From a virus, in UHGV virus genome UHGV-0181186: a stretch of DNA of 41,148 nt, one strand, 5' to 3'. A program made the translations under genes and the position numbers. Under the pieces are notes generated by a model. It saw nothing but the letters and a program-made list of their open reading frames with translations. It had not been told where the DNA came from and made no database searches. Positions 1,830-15,851 of the stretch are shown here, piece after piece (position 1 is the stretch's first letter; every line of letters begins with the position of its first letter).

Positions 1830-3400
1830 CGTCTCTGTAATAGCCTCTATACAACCCTTTCCCTTCCCTTTCCAGAATCTATCCCACTAATTCGATAGAA
1901 TCTATCCCGTACCTTAAAAGCAATAACTCTATAGTCTACTCTATAACCTCTTATCAAATCAACTTAAATAAAAGCCCATAACCCGAAAGGGAAGGGCAAC
2001 CATTTAAACGCTCTATAAAGCCCTATAACAGCCTTATCAACCTAACTTAAGGGATTGCATTAACCCACTCTAAAAAGCCCTTTATAGAGCTTCCCAGAGC
2101 CTTAGAAGAATCTTATAAGGGTGTAAGCTTTATCATCTCGTTAGTATTCTTGTGAACTACTAAAAAGGGCTTGGTAGTTCCTTTAAAGTATGTTATAGGG
2201 GCTATAAAGTTACTTTGAAGTAGCTTAAAAGTTACGTAAATGCTAGCCCCCTTAACATTTTCTTAACAATTTCTTAACAAACCCTACATAGTTATGCTTG
2301 TTAGAGACTTGTTAGCCCCTTGTTAAATCTCTGTTAAGACCACGTAAAAGCCTTGTAAGAGTCTTTAGCATAGCCTTTAAAGCCTCTGTAAAGCCCTATA
2401 AAGAGCTATCCATACAGTTGAGGGGTAGATACTAGGAAGAGACTTAAAAGAGCTTATAAAGAGCTATAGAGAGCTTTTAAGAGGTATGTTTAGAGAATCA
2501 CTAAGTAAGAGAGGGAACGATAAGGAAGAGTTAGTGACCATGTTAATAGCTTGTTAAAAAGATTAAACACTTGTTAGGAACTTGTTAATTATCCCTACAA
2601 AATAACTCTTTAAAATTAACTTGTTAGCTCTTGTTAGTCATCTGTTAAGATTCTGTAAAGTCTATGTATCAACTGTTAAGAAACTGTTACATCCTTGTTA
2701 GTTCTGTTAAGAATCTGTTAAGACCTTTGGAGAGATGTTAAGAGCTTGTGAGAACTGTTAAGAGATTGTTAAGGATATTTTAAAATTCTGCAAAGGGATG
2801 GTAAGGGAGTTGTTAAGGGTTACCAAGCAGATATACATCCTAATCAGATATTTTTGAGTTCCTTCAAAGACCCTAAAAAATGACTTGATAGTCCTATTTT
2901 ATAAAAATTTTAAAAATCTGAATAATTACCTAGACAGTCTTTTAAAAATACAGGTAGAAACAGGCTTATAAGATACCTTGTTAGTACCGTGTTAGACCTT
3001 GTGAGATAAGGTCTGTGAAGATATTCCTGTTAAGTTTGTTAAAACAGTCTATATAGAGGTTTAGTAATACCTAGTGAACACCTATAGAGGGTAACATAGC
3101 TTACCTAGAGATTAAGAGGTGTATAGAGGCTTCTAAGAGCGTATAGAGAGATGGTTAAGGTGATTGTATAGGTTGTTAAGAAGGCTTGTTAGAAGATTGT
3201 TTATAAGGCTTATTAAAGGGCTAGTTAGAAGGCTTATACAGGGGGCTATTAAGACCACTAGATAGTTACTAAGATACTATATAGTACTATATAACTATAT
3301 AGAGAGTAAGATTAAGGAGGTTGTTAAGAAGGATAGATATTTTGTTCACATATGCTGGTGACCCAGAGGTTGGGACAACCGATAAAATTTTATAAAAATT
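1830..3400. repeat. ORF-free iteron array (TGTTAAG-type and CTATAAAG/TATAGAG-type short repeats)
   Basis: No ORF in any frame across about 1.6 kb; dozens of copies of (C)TTGTTA(A/G)G and (C)TATA(A/G)AG at roughly 10-12 bp spacing; lies between convergent terminators. Confidence 0.7.
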
Positions 3401-12050: not shown

Positions 12051-13466
12051 ATGAGCGAATTATTTAAACATGCGCACCTTCATGCAGGTCGAACTGAAAA
12101 TGGTGCTGTAAACCATACTTCATCAATGTCTGCTCTTGTAGACTTTTACAAAGCTGCTGGTTCAAGCCGTAGCAATGTAGAAATCTTACCAGACTTGTTC
12201 TACAAAGCTTTGCGTGAGGATGTTGATGTTGCAGTTCGTATTTTGCTTCATATGCGAGATGTACGAGAAGGTATGGGTGAGCGTAAAGCCTTCAGAACTG
12301 TTTTGCTTCAAGCAATTGAAGATAAAGTTTTAGAGCCTACACAGGTTCTTCGCATTATGGATAAGATTGCAGAACTTGGTCGTTTTGATGACTTCAAAAT
12401 CTTCGTGGGTACTTGTTTCGAGACAGATGCCTTCAAACATTTAGAAGCAGCATTACTAGACCCTGCAACAGCAGGTTTGGCGGCTAAGTGGTTACCACGA
12501 GTCAAACCACGTCATAAGCAGTTTGTAAAACGTTTCTGCAAGTTTGCCAACTTGAGCGAGAAAGAGTACCGCACACTGTTATCTGCACTATCTGATACAG
12601 TTGAGCAAAAAATCTCTGCTAATGAGTTTGGCAAGATTGACTACAGTAAGGTTCCCTCACTTGCTGCTGCACGTTACCAAAAACTGTTTAACCGTAAGGA
12701 TGGAGAACGTTACAAAGCTTACATTGAGTCCTTATCAAAAGGTGAGGCTAAGATTAATGCTGGTGCTGTTTACCCATACGATGTGATTAAATCTGTCAAG
12801 CATGGTAATGCAGATGTTGCTAATGAGCAGTGGAAAGCACTACCAAACTGGATGGCAGAAGGTGAAAACATCTTGTGTATGTCTGATGTATCAAGTTCAA
12901 TGTCTTGGGTGAATTTTGGCTCCATTACTGCTCTGGATATTGGTGTATCACTTGCCTTGTATGTAGCAGAACGCAATACAGGTTGCTTTAAGAATGAGTT
13001 GATGGTTTATTCAACAAACCCTCACTTCATCGAACTGAGTGGTGATTTACGAAACCGTCATCGTCAGGTGATGCGACACGTTGAATATGGCTCAACTAAC
13101 TTACAAGCAGCTTTTGACCGCATTCTTGAGACAGGCAAAAGAAACAACTTGACTCAGAAAGATATGCCAAGTAAGCTTATCATCTTCTCCGATATGGAGT
13201 TTAATCAGGTTGATGGGGCTAACGGTCGTACAAACTTTGAAGCAATTCAGAGTAAGTACAAAAAAGCTGGATATGAGATGCCACAACTGGTATTCTGGTA
13301 CTTAGCAAACCGTAATGGTACTTGCGAAGTATCTGTTAAGGATAACGGTGTAGCAATGGTATCAGGGTTCTCTCCAGCCACTTTAAAAGCTCTGCTTGGT
13401 GGTGAGAAGTTTGACCCAATCAGTGTAATGCTCAAAGCAGTAATGATTGACCGTTATATCTGGTAA
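12051..13466 (+). CDS. Ro60/Rsr-like protein (TROVE-like N-terminal region plus C-terminal vWA domain with MIDAS motif)
   Basis: 471 aa; DxSxS MIDAS motif (CMSDVSSSMS), downstream IIFSDMEFN and …GFSPATL… segments resemble the Ro60 vWA domain by recollection; helical N-terminal region. Confidence 0.6.
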   Translation: MSELFKHAHLHAGRTENGAVNHTSSMSALVDFYKAAGSSRSNVEILPDLFYKALREDVDVAVRILLHMRDVREGMGERKAFRTVLLQAIEDKVLEPTQVLRIMDKIAELGRFDDFKIFVGTCFETDAFKHLEAALLDPATAGLAAKWLPRVKPRHKQFVKRFCKFANLSEKEYRTLLSALSDTVEQKISANEFGKIDYSKVPSLAAARYQKLFNRKDGERYKAYIESLSKGEAKINAGAVYPYDVIKSVKHGNADVANEQWKALPNWMAEGENILCMSDVSSSMSWVNFGSITALDIGVSLALYVAERNTGCFKNELMVYSTNPHFIELSGDLRNRHRQVMRHVEYGSTNLQAAFDRILETGKRNNLTQKDMPSKLIIFSDMEFNQVDGANGRTNFEAIQSKYKKAGYEMPQLVFWYLANRNGTCEVSVKDNGVAMVSGFSPATLKALLGGEKFDPISVMLKAVMIDRYIW

Positions 13467-13484
13467 AAAGTTTTAAAAAGGGTA

Positions 13485-13513
13485 TTGACAATGTGTTTAA
13501 TACCCTTTAATAT
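13485..13513 (+). promoter_or_regulatory. sigma70-type promoter (TTGACA-N17-TAATAT)
   Basis: Consensus -35 with 17-nt spacer and near-consensus -10; preceded by aaaaagggta; about 120 nt upstream of the first tRNA. Confidence 0.65.
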
Positions 13514-13575
13514 GTTCTACATAGAAACGAAATGAGAGCTTTTCTAAGATACTGAAAAATATTTTAAAAAAGTTC

Positions 13576-13604
13576 TTGACAACCACTAAAAAATAATGTT
13601 AAAG
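13576..13604 (+). promoter_or_regulatory. candidate promoter (TTGACA-N17-TTAAAG)
   Basis: aaaagttcTTGACA with weak -10; same upstream motif family. Confidence 0.35.
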
Positions 13605-13631
13605 TGTTTACATAGAGTTTGAAAAGTTTAT

Positions 13632-13708
13632 CTCTGTTTAGCTCAGCTTGGTAGAGCGTTCCGTTTGGGGCGGTAAGGCCGGAGGTTCAAGTCCTCCAAC
13701 AGAGACCA
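13632..13708 (+). tRNA. tRNA-Pro (anticodon TGG)
   Basis: Hand-folded cloverleaf: 7-bp acceptor ctctgtt/aacagag, T-arm ggagg-ttcaagt-cctcc, anticodon loop tttgggg, CCA encoded. Confidence 0.75.
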
Positions 13709-13715
13709 AATTAAT

Positions 13716-13793
13716 GTTCCAGTAGACAAAATGGTAAAGTCACCACTCTTTCAAAGTGGATATCTGAGGGTTCAAATCCCTTCTGGAACGCCA
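13716..13793 (+). tRNA. tRNA-Glu (anticodon TTC)
   Basis: Acceptor gttccag/ctggaac, anticodon arm ccact-ctttcaa-agtgg, T-loop ttcaaat, CCA encoded. Confidence 0.75.
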
Positions 13794-13800
13794 GTTTTGA

Positions 13801-13872
13801 CAGAAGACCAATTACAGCAAACTTAATCTACTCATCTGAAAGTTAATCGGACAAAGAAGATATTTGGTCTGG
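13801..13872 (+). ncRNA. candidate structured RNA repeat element 1 (conserved CAGAAGACC…TTACAGCAA 5' end, GGTCTGG 3' end)
   Basis: 5' and 3' ends can pair (AGACCAA/TTGGTCT) enclosing an AT-rich variable loop; no T-arm; related copies at 13967, 14421 and 14508. Confidence 0.35.
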
Positions 13873-13883
13873 TCATTAAGAAT

Positions 13884-13960
13884 TGCGGGTATAGAGAAAG
13901 GGCGTCTCACATGTCTCATTAGCATGGTATCGGCAGGTTCGACTCCTGCACCCGCCTCCA
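13884..13960 (+). tRNA. tRNA with anticodon CAT (Met or Ile2/lysidine)
   Basis: Anticodon arm catgt-ctcatta-gcatg, T-arm gcagg-ttcgact-cctgc, CCA encoded; position 1:72 appears mismatched. Confidence 0.7.
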
Positions 13961-13966
13961 AATTTA

Positions 13967-14030
13967 CAGAAGACCGTTTACAGCAATATTTATTAAATTT
14001 TTAGCGGAAAAATTGAAAGATACGGTCTGG
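13967..14030 (+). ncRNA. candidate structured RNA repeat element 2
   Basis: cagaagaccgtttacagcaa … acggtctgg; terminal stem AGACCGT/ACGGTCT. Confidence 0.35.
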
Positions 14031-14043
14031 TAATACTAAACAT

Positions 14044-14120
14044 GGTTAGGAAGCACATAAGGTATGTGCGGTCGCCTGTTAAGCGAATGGCACAGGGTTC
14101 GAATCCCTGACTAACCGCCA
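14044..14120 (+). tRNA. tRNA-Asn (anticodon GTT)
   Basis: Acceptor ggttagg/actaacc, D-arm gcac…gtgc, anticodon loop ctgttaa, T-arm caggg-ttcgaat-ccctg, CCA encoded. Confidence 0.75.
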
Positions 14121-14189
14121 AATTTAGGAGAGAAGTGATTGCTCACCGATTTGTAAGGTGCAAGTCCTTAGCCTGAATAGAAATTAAAT

Positions 14190-14277
14190 GTGTCGTTATC
14201 CCGTAGATGGTAGCGGTGGGGACTGTAAATCCCTTGTCATTGAGACTCGGTAGGTTCGACTCCTACACGGCACACCA
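14190..14277 (+). tRNA. tRNA-Tyr (anticodon GTA), long variable arm
   Basis: 88 nt; acceptor gtgtcgt/acggcac, anticodon arm gggga-ctgtaaa-tccct, T-arm gtagg-ttcgact-cctac, CCA encoded. Confidence 0.7.
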
Positions 14278-14282
14278 ATAAA

Positions 14283-14359
14283 GGCTATGTAGTTTAACTG
14301 GAGAAAATACTCCCCTGTCACGGGAGATGATGTGAGTTCAAGTCTCATCGTAGCCGCCA
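14283..14359 (+). tRNA. tRNA-Asp (anticodon GTC)
   Basis: Acceptor ggctatg/cgtagcc, anticodon arm ctccc-ctgtcac-gggag, CCA encoded. Confidence 0.75.
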
Positions 14360-14384
14360 ATTTTGAGAGGGCTGTTTAGCCCAT

Positions 14385-14418
14385 CCCTTAAAGAGTTCTT
14401 ACGAGTATTCTTTAAGGG
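14385..14418 (+). other. 10-bp perfect-stem hairpin (possible terminator or RNA processing site)
   Basis: cccttaaaga…tctttaaggg inverted repeat; a second hairpin gggctgtttagccc lies immediately upstream. Confidence 0.45.
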
Positions 14419-14420
14419 AG

Positions 14421-14497
14421 CAGAAGACCAAATACAGCAAGAATGTATGAAATTTCAAGCCAATTTAATTTTGAAAATTTAAAACTTGGTCTGGCTC
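14421..14497 (+). ncRNA. candidate structured RNA repeat element 3
   Basis: cagaagaccaaatacagcaa … cttggtctgg. Confidence 0.35.
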
Positions 14498-14507
14498 AAC
14501 AAATTTA

Positions 14508-14639
14508 CAGAAGGCCGTTTACAGCAAAACTTAAACAATCTATTTCTCCGGTAAAGAAAAGGCGAAGGTTCGATTCCTTCACTCGGCAGATGTCGAGTTG
14601 GTGTAATGGTAGCACTTAAGATGATAAACAACGGTCTGG
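14508..14639 (+). ncRNA. candidate Y-RNA/YrlA-like RNA with circularly permuted tRNA-like module
   Basis: Order along the strand: conserved 5' motif, T-arm (gaagg-ttcgatt-ccttc), acceptor-like 7-bp hairpin capped by a tetraloop (actcggc-agat-gtcgagt), D-arm-like (gtg-taatggtag-cac), then a 3' strand (aacggtctgg) able to pair with the 5' motif. Confidence 0.4.
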
Positions 14640-14646
14640 TAATTAC

Positions 14647-14778
14647 CTTTGTAGATAAGTTATTAAGCTTACTTGTGAGTATGCGACCACAAAGGGTGAA
14701 TGGGTAAATTCTAGATTTAAACCCAAAAAGGCACATCGCTACAGACCTTAAGCAAGTCTGGGTAGCTTATCTACAAAG
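14647..14778 (+). other. long-range 13-bp perfect inverted repeat enclosing structured sequence
   Basis: ctttgtagataag (14647-14659) and cttatctacaaag (14766-14778) are exact reverse complements; interior contains hairpins cagac…gtctg and gggtaaat…atttaaaccc. Confidence 0.4.
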
Positions 14779-14788
14779 ATAATTTAAT

Positions 14789-14864
14789 GGAAGTGTAGCA
14801 GAATGGTGATGCGGCAGACTTTTAATCTGACAGGCGATGGGTTCGAATCCCTCCACTTCTACCA
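14789..14864 (+). tRNA. tRNA-Lys (anticodon TTT)
   Basis: Acceptor ggaagtg/cacttct, anticodon loop cttttaa, CCA encoded; paralog of the tRNA at 16377; T-stem weak. Confidence 0.65.
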
Positions 14865-14868
14865 ATAT

Positions 14869-14945
14869 GGTTCAGTCGCAGATAAGGTAATGCAAGGGTC
14901 TCATAAGCCCTATGAATGTGGGTTCGATTCCCATCTGAACCTCCA
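14869..14945 (+). tRNA. tRNA with anticodon CAT (second copy; Met or Ile2)
   Basis: Acceptor ggttcag/ctgaacc, anticodon arm agggt-ctcataa-gccct, CCA encoded. Confidence 0.7.
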
Positions 14946-14946
14946 A

Positions 14947-15022
14947 GCTGGTATAGTTAAGAAGGTTATAACACTCCCCTGATAAGGGAACATCGGTGGT
15001 TCGATTCCACCTACCAGTACCA
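14947..15022 (+). tRNA. tRNA-Ile (anticodon GAT)
   Basis: Acceptor gctggta/taccagt, anticodon loop ctgataa, T-arm ggtgg-ttcgatt-ccacc, CCA encoded. Confidence 0.7.
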
Positions 15023-15037
15023 ATTTCAATAAAGTTG

Positions 15038-15066
15038 TTGACATTGAGATGTGACTACTTTATAGT
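15038..15066 (+). promoter_or_regulatory. sigma70-type promoter (TTGACA-N17-TATAGT)
   Basis: aaagttgTTGACA…17 nt…TATAGT inside the tRNA array. Confidence 0.65.
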
Positions 15067-15270
15067 AACCTTAGTTTTCGTTGCGTAGCGTCTATTTTGC
15101 AAATTTAAAATAAATGCAAACGACAATGTTTTTCTGGCAGTAGCTTGATAGGCTAAACACCAGTGAGGTCTTCCAATCCCTCATCAAAGAATTTGGCGTA
15201 CTCGCCCACGGTATGATTAATAAGGTGGGCATCTTTAAGGGCTTTCTAAGAGAGTCTTTAAAGATAATTA

Positions 15271-15352
15271 CGGGGCGTATCTCAGCGGTCTTCTAAACCG
15301 CCGTTAACCGAGTAAGTGGAGTATGCGGGTTCGAGTCCTGCCGCCTCGACCA
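15271..15352 (+). tRNA. noncanonical tRNA-like gene, anticodon TCT (Arg) with no recognisable D-arm
   Basis: Acceptor cggggcg/cgcctcg plus ACCA, perfect anticodon arm gcggt-cttctaa-accgc, T-arm gcggg-ttcgagt-cctgc; only 7 nt between acceptor and anticodon stem, and a 23-nt variable region. Confidence 0.45.
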
Positions 15353-15366
15353 ATTTTGGAGAAATC

Positions 15367-15714
15367 ATGAAAACTTGTATTAGGTGCAAACTTAGCAAGG
15401 ATGAAAATGATTTCTACATGAAAGATGGTAGGAGAACTCATTCATACTGTAAAAAGTGTGTTAATGAGCAAACCATAGAAAGACAAAGAGCACTTAAACT
15501 CTTAGCTATTGAGTACAAAGGTGGGGTTTGTCATGATTGTGGTAAGAAGTATCATCCAGCAGTGTATGACTTCCATCATTTGAATCCTTCAGATAAAGAT
15601 TTTAACATTGGTCATAGGAAAAGCCTTAAGTTCTCTCAAGAACTAAAAGATGAACTTGACAAATGTGTTTTGCTATGTTCAAATTGCCATAGGGTAAGAC
15701 ATGCAAAATATTAG
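15367..15714 (+). CDS. HNH endonuclease (homing-endonuclease-like)
   Basis: CxxC…CxxC zinc-binding pairs (CIRCKL, CKKC, CHDCGK, CSNCH) and HH…N…H HNH motif; GGAG RBS; the ORF-track 5' extension overlaps a tRNA and was trimmed. Confidence 0.8.
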   Translation: MKTCIRCKLSKDENDFYMKDGRRTHSYCKKCVNEQTIERQRALKLLAIEYKGGVCHDCGKKYHPAVYDFHHLNPSDKDFNIGHRKSLKFSQELKDELDKCVLLCSNCHRVRHAKY

Positions 15715-15851
15715 TTAGCAGATTACTTAGACGACCTTAGCGGGTCTTCCTGTAGGGAGGTGGTCTGTATCTCATGTTTTCCAGAACATGTAAATAATCT
15801 GAGAAGGGGCTTTACAGTGTTGAGATAATACGGTAAGCTTCGAATTATAGT

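Follow-up and report, generated by a model that had tools for sequence, protein, structure and literature searches.

Candidate Y-RNA-like partners of a divergent Ro60-like protein in the tRNA array of Felix O1-type phages

Ro60 proteins and Y RNAs have been studied from bacteria to humans; human Ro60 is a major lupus and Sjogren autoantigen, and the role of the Y RNAs is debated. The virus genome UHGV-0181186, whose entire analysed stretch of 41,148 nucleotides (nt) is called the window below, raises the question of what is encoded by a set of repeated spacers that lie downstream of a Ro60-like protein gene, within an array of transfer RNA (tRNA) genes. The genome is that of a Felix O1-type phage, with the region 13460-14800 being 98% identical to Escherichia phage garuso and Salmonella phage Felix O1. 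ARAGORN predicts 25 tRNA genes on the plus strand within 13632-19204, and the repeats are spacers inside the first group of these. An earlier note on this DNA had proposed that the repeats could be small structured RNAs and possible Ro60 ligands, processing signals, or mobile mini-elements. The first of these proposals is favoured by the Ro60 fold encoded upstream, by the linkage of the repeats to that gene and by covariation, with the ligand part of it standing as a prediction. Our reading, to which we give a probability of about 0.65, is that the repeats specify Y-RNA-like non-coding RNAs which would be expressed and would partner the Ro60-like protein encoded just upstream.

A 19-nt pattern, AGAAGRCCNNNTACAGCAA, occurs four times in the window, always on the plus strand, with starts at 13802, 13968, 14422 and 14509, whereas shuffled sequences contain it 0.07 times on average and none of 100 shuffles contains it four times. 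All four copies, hereafter c1 to c4, terminate in NNGGTCTGG. The coordinates previously assigned to the copies are right to within 2 nt, and the pairing of AGACC and GGTCT cores that had been noticed reaches further than these cores. The copies share a "handle", in which a 3-base-pair (bp) outer helix (P0) is followed by an internal loop (AGA in the 5' strand, G in the 3' strand) and by a 7-bp helix, P1 (AGRCCNN/NNGGUCU). Directly 3' of the 5' strand of P1 is an unpaired (U/A)UACAGCAA (WWWCAGCAA), and 3' of its 3' strand is an unpaired G. The features on which the argument depends are:

12051-13466, plus strand: gene for a Ro60-like protein of 471 amino acids (Pfam DUF2828/DUF7788; Ro60 fold from AlphaFold), orthologue of Felix O1 ORF42 and Bas63 gp130
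13485-13513 and 13576-13605, plus strand: two tandem putative sigma-70-like promoters (consensus scan only, each 10/12)
13799-13874, plus strand: c1, short form, between tRNA-Glu and tRNA-Met; P0 13799-13801/13872-13874, P1 13805-13811/13864-13870, UUACAGCAA 13812-13820, unpaired G 13871
13965-14032, plus strand: c2, short form, between tRNA-Met and tRNA-Asn; P0 13965-13967/14030-14032, P1 13971-13977/14022-14028, UUACAGCAA 13978-13986, unpaired G 14029
14419-14496, plus strand: c3, short form, after tRNA-Asp and a conserved hairpin; P0 14419-14421/14494-14496, P1 14425-14431/14486-14492, AUACAGCAA 14432-14440, unpaired G 14493
14506-14641, plus strand: c4, long form, the common handle plus a tRNA-like insert; P0 14506-14508/14639-14641, P1 14512-14518/14631-14637, UUACAGCAA 14519-14527; interior with variable hairpin 14543-14559, T arm 14564-14580, closed acceptor-like hairpin 14581-14598 and D arm 14601-14615

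The first copy starts 333 nt past the stop codon of the Ro60-like gene. The putative promoters stand between that gene and tRNA-Pro, and no terminator-like site was found on the plus strand in 13600-15000.

Both helices of the handle covary. Among the window copies the two inner pairs of P1 are either AA:UU or GU:AC, with the full helix reading AGACCAA/UUGGUCU or AGRCCGU/ACGGUCU, and P0 is, in order from c1 to c4, GAC/GUC, UAC/GUA, AGC/GCU and UAC/GUA. The handle encloses a variable "cargo", which is a small A/U-rich hairpin in c1-c3 (interiors A/U-rich, 42-45 nt) and a permuted tRNA-like domain in c4. The latter, already recognized in the earlier note, corresponds to a tRNA permuted at the anticodon stem, and its T arm has a GGTTCGATTCC loop. 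A comparison with relatives, which the note had proposed as a check, finds the copies conserved at the same positions in Felixounavirus, Mooglevirus (Sf14, HP1) and Suspvirus (SUSP2); in the latter two genera the handle is kept and the interiors drift. In orthologues of c2 (SUSP2, loci L003 and L005) P0 has undergone a compensatory change from UAC/GUA to UGC/GCA, and the acceptor-like hairpin of c4 is replaced in relatives by different, still complementary sequences. A further candidate helix in c4, resembling an anticodon stem (CUUAA/UUAAG), was dropped, being absent from Sf14 and SUSP2.

No tRNA is predicted by ARAGORN, and no relevant Rfam family is matched at gathering thresholds or at E<=10, over any of c1-c4; the T arm of c4 gives a partial match to the tRNA family (RF00005) of 22 bits, below threshold. 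Two small open reading frames (ORFs) over c3 and c4 (14443-14619 on the plus strand and 14479-14736 on the minus strand) were ruled out as coding by non-triplet indels and compensatory stem changes in orthologues. The earlier statement that the elements are not tRNAs and lie outside any credible ORF is correct for copies 1-3. Overall, c1-c4 are not chance occurrences, tRNAs, coding sequences or mobile repeats. In public records this region is annotated differently: the Bas63 record (MZ501086.1; locus 2821-3095) has two minus-strand 'hypothetical protein' coding sequences (CDS), bas63_0137 and bas63_0138, over c4 and the next structured spacer, and the wV8 and Alf5 records likewise have small 'hypothetical protein' CDS annotated over c4 and the spacer that follows it. 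These CDS are probably not genes.

Most longer forms of the family share the permuted tRNA-like domain of c4, and 16 such RNAs from enterobacterial, mycobacterial and uncultured phages were aligned with flush ends on a four-helix structure. P1 had been chosen on pairing by the descriptor given below; the T, acceptor and D helices had not. In this alignment 97.1% of the cells are paired, against 63% in shuffled controls and at most 45% with partners slid. Each of the four helices is paired at 94-100%, both-side changes are seen in 17 of 20 pairs, including 10 of the 13 that make up the T, acceptor and D arms (c4 plus 15 homologues), and the covariation score is 0.916 against 0.246. Two covariance models were built, R1 for the long form and R2 for the short form with P1 only; c4 is outside the seed of R2 and c1 outside the seed of R1. 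R1 recovers c4 with 87.4 bits (E 1.5e-14), finds additional long forms beyond its seed and also scores short copies (c1 with 33.2 bits, c2 with 29.9 bits), all of its 137 matches being on the plus strand. When R2 was run with filters off on both strands of the 41-kb window, the only significant matches were c2 (53.5 bits), c1 (40.7 bits), c3 (38.7 bits) and c4 (26.0 bits), with the next-best match at 17 bits; the search for more copies that had been suggested earlier ends, within the window, with four elements. Over 79 loci R2 gives 70 matches on the plus strand and 2 on the minus strand.

The family extends to distant phages. In Yersinia phage P778, whose protein is 53% identical, and in an IMG/VR contig (48%), elements are found between tRNAs with other P1 sequences (GGACUGU/ACAGUCC, GGAUUC/GAAUCC, AGAGCAC/GUGCUCU and AGGACAC/GUGUCCU), each followed by UU(A/U)CAGCAA. 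We used a descriptor consisting of a 7-mer, NNNCAGCAA, 20-170 nt and the perfect reverse complement of the 7-mer, and applied it to 80 non-redundant sources, namely the window and loci fetched via the protein. It matches 71 times on the strand of the gene and once on the opposite strand, while shuffles average 2.3 matches with both strands summed, and the base that follows the match is G in 68 of the 71. A control for register shows that 76 of 233 occurrences of the motif have the complement of the 7-mer directly upstream, compared to 2-7 with a shift of 1-20 nt; for occurrences on the opposite strand the figure is 1 of 154. At least one element is present in 49 of 75 diverse metagenomic viral contigs, and 51 of 68 elements are found no more than 600 nt from an end of the gene, in a zone that makes up 16% of the flanking DNA. 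The consensus of 99 distinct members is W-G-R-N-Y-N-N, then U-U-(A/U)-CAGCAA, an A-rich run, the complementary strand and G. Elements are between 46 and 183 nt long; short forms mostly measure 50-70 nt, and another cluster of lengths is seen at about 100-130 nt. Outside the Felix lineage 62 of 78 elements are further than 500 nt from any tRNA, and 28 of the 53 loci with an element have no tRNA gene whatever. Because the elements mostly stand next to the gene and without a nearby tRNA, the family tracks the Ro60-like gene rather than tRNA genes.

Two variations within the family concern what the handle carries. In some uncultured phages (L038:3734-3833; L156, L168) it encloses a near-complete tRNA in normal order (Rfam tRNA 52.9 bits) or a hairpin resembling an anticodon arm. 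In some short forms (L013, L024, L050, L059) the pentamer AGCAA occurs 2-3 times at a spacing of about 12-15 nt, which hints at several binding sites per RNA.

Validation was provided by records that contributed nothing to the seeds of the covariance models. Here elements stand directly beside the gene in Listeria phage LMSP-25 (three, immediately upstream; an RtcB ligase gene lies about 1.3 kb downstream), Staphylococcus phage 6ec (three, just downstream), Campylobacter phage CPX (two, just upstream), Enterococcus phage VRE9_1 (one), Sinorhizobium phage phiM7 (two long forms) and the mycobacteriophages Snenia, Enceladus and Crossroads. In the cluster L mycobacteriophages a short-long-short trio lies between the gene annotated as 'Ro-like RNA binding protein' and a terminator, and there is no tRNA array at this place. 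Across phages of at least five bacterial phyla, the family is linked genetically to homologues of the Ro60-fold gene and shares their orientation. When IMG/VR was scanned blindly for AGGNNNNTTACAGCAAAC, with 1-15 kb of DNA examined per match, 123 matches were obtained. A perfect complement of P1 is present in 35 of them and is followed by G in all 35; a Ro60-like gene accompanies 19 of these 35, always on the same strand and in 14 cases within 1 kb, as against 7 of the 88 matches that have no P1 complement. These results indicate that c1-c4 very probably belong to a structured RNA family coupled to the Ro60-like gene.

The product of ORF 12051-13466 is assigned by Pfam to DUF2828 and DUF7788 and belongs to PHROG 850, named 'RNA-binding protein'; NCBIfam has no match for it. 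An AlphaFold model, built with 56 homologues (pLDDT, the predicted local distance difference test score, 89.4), folds as a helical-repeat ring with a vWA domain, and the protein models as a full-length Ro60 fold. The 12 best matches of this model among PDB structures are all Ro60/TROVE proteins, aligned over the full length with TM-scores up to 0.64, and comprise Xenopus Ro60, Deinococcus Rsr, human Ro60 complexes and the Ro60 of Thermus phage phiLo. The DxSxS (MIDAS) residues D279, S281 and S283 are invariant in the 56 homologues. In Bas63 the protein bas63_0130 (gp130) has the same size and position, and has been described as Ro60-like and as countering the Ppl defence (PhageMaP preprint, 10.1101/2024.10.10.617714). 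The divergent Ro60-like clade was detected by tblastn in 710 phage genome records, and its members include those of such workhorse phages as Felix O1, Bas63, Listeria Pecentumvirus, Staphylococcus 6ec, Campylobacter Fletchervirus and cluster L mycobacteriophages. In Listeria phage LMSP-25 (2959-7019 of the locus) and Enterococcus phage VRE9_1 the gene lies near genes for an RtcB-type RNA ligase and a phosphohydrolase/phosphoesterase, a neighbourhood that echoes the bacterial rsr-yrlBA-rtcBA RNA-repair operon.

Several systems are available for comparison. YrlA RNAs adjoin TROVE-annotated Ro60 genes in 254 bacteria and 22 phages and carry GNCGAAN0-1G and a tRNA-like domain (PMC4201824); the main text of that study, Chen et al. 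2014, points to TROVE-annotated phages such as mycobacteriophage ET08. Like YrlA, c4 is encoded beside a Ro60-type gene and on its strand, as is usual for Y RNAs in bacteria and phages, its termini form a stem flanked by a short conserved motif, and its permuted tRNA-like domain has the order T arm, closed acceptor hairpin, D arm seen in the Rfam consensus. The locus also has, as in the YrlA systems, one tRNA-like RNA and shorter companions (YrlB-like) that lack such a domain. In contrast, the terminal part of the Rfam YrlA has three stacked helices of 6, 7 and 4 bp with GNCGAAN0-1G, whereas c4 has a single 7-bp helix and an unpaired CAGCAA. Furthermore, in the c4-type RNAs long single-stranded linkers join the tRNA-like domain to the stem, and the partner protein is DUF2828/DUF7788, not detected as TROVE.

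In Thermus phage phiLo, Ro60 binds two Y-like RNAs that are encoded nearby and carry CGAA, and it joins the host PNPase (PMC12135203). This system (PDB 9KOP, 9L5Y) resembles the one in the window in that a phage encodes a Ro60 fold and, next to its gene, at least two small stem-bulge-stem RNAs, and phiLo Ro60 is itself among the best structural matches of the window ORF. It differs in that the phiLo RNAs have CGAA and lie upstream of the gene, and that the phiLo protein is recognisable as Ro60 by sequence. The phiLo RNAs have been demonstrated to bind and to enter into a complex with PNPase of the host; binding of the Felix O1-type RNAs is a prediction. With the Y RNAs of metazoans and Deinococcus, c1-c4 would share the modular logic of a terminal helix with a conserved Ro60 site and a variable recruiting module, as well as the presence of several paralogous RNAs per protein; they differ in having no sequence similarity to them and no bulged GGUCCGA helix, and in being predicted inside a tRNA operon, not as separate genes. 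The Bas63 preprint (10.1101/2024.10.10.617714) suspected that some annotated tRNA genes might be Y RNAs and named none; the candidates presented here are unannotated spacers, not annotated tRNA genes. No description of the CAGCAA handle was found in Rfam or in the literature searched, the coverage of which is incomplete, and c1-c4 go unmentioned in the paper on the Felix O1 genome and in that on the Sf14 tRNAs. The Ro60/Y RNA kind of system being known, the finding is best read as a new variant of it, with a CAGCAA handle, for a divergent phage Ro60-like protein.

Several observations weigh against the proposal that c1-c4 are partners of the Ro60-like protein. At the level of the RNA, single-sequence folding energies of c1-c4 are not significant relative to shuffles (z -1.1 to -1.8), and their structure is supported because the helices covary, thermodynamics not being the basis. 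The motif CAGCAA differs from every described Ro60-binding motif (GGUCCGA, GNCGAAN0-1G, CGAA), and Rfam YrlA (RF02553, gathering threshold 69 bits) does not match c4 even at E<=10 with a 156-nt query. In 14 related loci YrlA likewise finds no match at its gathering threshold, and a search of the region at E<=10 yields for it only a tRNA dimer at 18142-18264 with 17 bits. At the level of the protein, Pfam TROVE does not match the ORF, the resemblance to Ro60 being at the fold level only, and PDB sequences yielded no Ro60 in a single-sequence (phmmer) search or in one with a profile of 56 homologues. Of the 35 well-formed elements of the blind scan, 16 have no Ro60-like gene in the 1-15 kb examined; adjacency is therefore common, not universal, and another binding partner is possible. 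Finally, in the published work on Bas63, gp130 alone, on a plasmid or inserted in T7, restores growth of T7 on Ppl, and therefore at least its anti-Ppl activity has no need for these RNAs. Such RNA-independent activity parallels, by analogy, that of Ro60, which is active both free of and bound to Y RNA. Y RNAs themselves as a rule depend on Ro60 for their stability.

Two of these observations lend themselves to a different reading, in which the handle is real and is bound by a host factor (PNPase, Hfq, ProQ or a tRNA enzyme) or by another phage protein, the proximity of the gene reflecting a shared regulation or pathway. Both the elements without a gene in the blind scan and the activity of gp130 without the RNAs would fit this, the repeated AGCAA of some short forms could suit a multimeric single-strand binder, and the A-rich 3' segment is conserved as well. 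However, the elements are closely and directionally tied to the gene even between phages that are very far apart in evolution (75% lie within 600 nt; strands 71:1 and 70:2), and the absence of the gene in the blind scan is weak evidence because the stretches are short fragments of larger contigs. Moreover, known Ro60 proteins bind neighbouring RNAs of just this stem-plus-motif type (PMC4201824, PMC12135203). We therefore consider a different binder unlikely. As the handle family adjoins the Ro60-like gene in many unrelated phages, c1-c4 are most likely Y RNA partners, and the Ro60-like protein probably binds them.

The stems might alternatively be punctuation or processing signals of the tRNA precursor, for instance RNase III/E entry sites or spacers for folding and release, which never become separate RNAs. 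This would agree with the situation in the window and its Ounavirinae relatives, where all elements lie between tRNA genes of one transcription unit and a few nt from tRNA ends. Yet the link to tRNAs vanishes outside this lineage, as seen from the tRNA counts given above, with most members elsewhere having no tRNA gene within 500 nt, and the three elements of the cluster L mycobacteriophages come after the Ro-like gene and run up to a terminator. Nor would a cleavage stem be expected to have a strictly conserved unpaired CAGCAA or a complete tRNA-like domain, which makes this earlier suggestion improbable. That the elements are miniature mobile repeats (MITE/REP-like DNA) spread through the tRNA region, as the presence of multiple copies in a genome, each bounded by short inverted repeats (the P1 arms), and the greater likeness of P1 sequences within than between genomes might suggest, is highly improbable given their near-exclusive single orientation (71:1, 70:2), the syntenic positions of c1-c4 in the three genera while their interiors diverge, the preservation of pairing by compensatory changes and the lack of any copy elsewhere in the 41-kb window.

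The tRNA region contains additional structured or unusual features. The earlier note had placed a related segment in the element at 16700-16793; this does not hold, as the element has only GAAGACCGT in common, lacks CAGCAA and is matched by neither R1 nor R2. Considered as a fifth member, 16699-16794 was rejected; it shares only GAAGACCGU with c2 and c4. This 96-nt spacer, which separates tRNA-Thr from tRNA-Val, forms a long hairpin (-30 kcal/mol, z -4.0). Its sequence identity among Felixounavirus, Mooglevirus and Suspvirus is 92%, a conservation that far exceeds that of the Y-like interiors, and it probably specifies another non-coding RNA. A long-range stem, CTTTGTAGATAAG / CTTATCTACAAAG, is seen in 14640-14788, between c4 and tRNA-Lys; in Sf14, SUSP2 and HP1 it is swapped for another complementary pair, CTTTGCAGTGAC / GTTACTGCAAAG, and this suggests a further structured RNA of about 140 nt. 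Conserved sequence is also seen in the spacer 14121-14189, present in Sf14 and SUSP2 and deleted in Citrobacter phage HP1, and in a hairpin (CCCTTAAAGAG...CTTTAAGGGA) at 14360-14420, just before c3. Further downstream, a near-consensus promoter at 15038-15066 is followed by a stretch with close resemblance to the tag-coding part of a transfer-messenger RNA (tmRNA), AAAAUAAAU GCAAACGACAAUGUUUUUCUGGCAGUAGCUUGAUAG, which would encode ANDNVFLAVA and two stops, and by an odd tRNA-like gene at 15271-15349 with a D arm of only 4 nt and a 20-nt insert, the orthologue of which is annotated as tRNA-Arg(TCT). Over 15038-15349 the Rfam models tmRNA and tmRNA_permuted score 16 and 29 bits against a threshold of 47, and ARAGORN finds no tmRNA; a degenerate or unusual phage tmRNA may be encoded here. 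A clear permuted tmRNA, which passes the threshold with 71.7 bits, is present in the contig of an uncultured phage (L027:293-616), where it precedes the Ro60-like gene by a few kb. The array also contains an HNH endonuclease-like ORF at 15316-15714, and in Felix O1 HNH genes occur at other positions of the array; because of these differing positions, the tRNA region gives partial or rearranged matches among relatives.

Returning to c1-c4 as partners of the Ro60-like protein, we propose that they would be transcribed from the predicted promoters (13485-13513 and 13576-13605) within the tRNA precursor, with no terminator in between, and that processing of the adjacent tRNAs would free them as RNAs of about 70-135 nt. 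The cuts involved would be made by RNase P at the 5' end of the next tRNA, and by RNase E and exonucleases after the CCA of the previous one. By analogy with the terminal stem and conserved motif of Y RNAs, the handle would be the protein-binding site, and the cargo module may set further contacts of the particle, with the tRNA-like c4 possibly addressing tRNA-binding factors. The RNAs might gate the protein or tether it to host RNA-handling enzymes, as in the analogous cases of Rsr, Y RNA and PNPase, and of phiLo Ro60, Yrl and PNPase.

A more speculative extension is that the P1-CAGCAA handle is a portable tag, by which the Ro60-like protein captures interchangeable cargos (simple hairpins, permuted tRNA mimics and, in some phages, whole tRNAs or anticodon-arm mimics), and that the resulting particles protect, or act as decoys for, the phage translation apparatus against host immunity that targets RNA or tRNA. 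We regard this only as a tentative possibility; if true, the system would be a widespread RNA-protein counter-defence module, not a housekeeping quality-control factor.

The finding accounts for conserved 'spacers' in phage tRNA arrays and flags the small CDS annotated over them as probably spurious. It also offers, for a second and very divergent clade of Ro60-like proteins, concrete candidate RNA partners with a defined conserved motif, and, since the Bas63 protein has a reported anti-Ppl phenotype, the role of these RNAs is readily testable.

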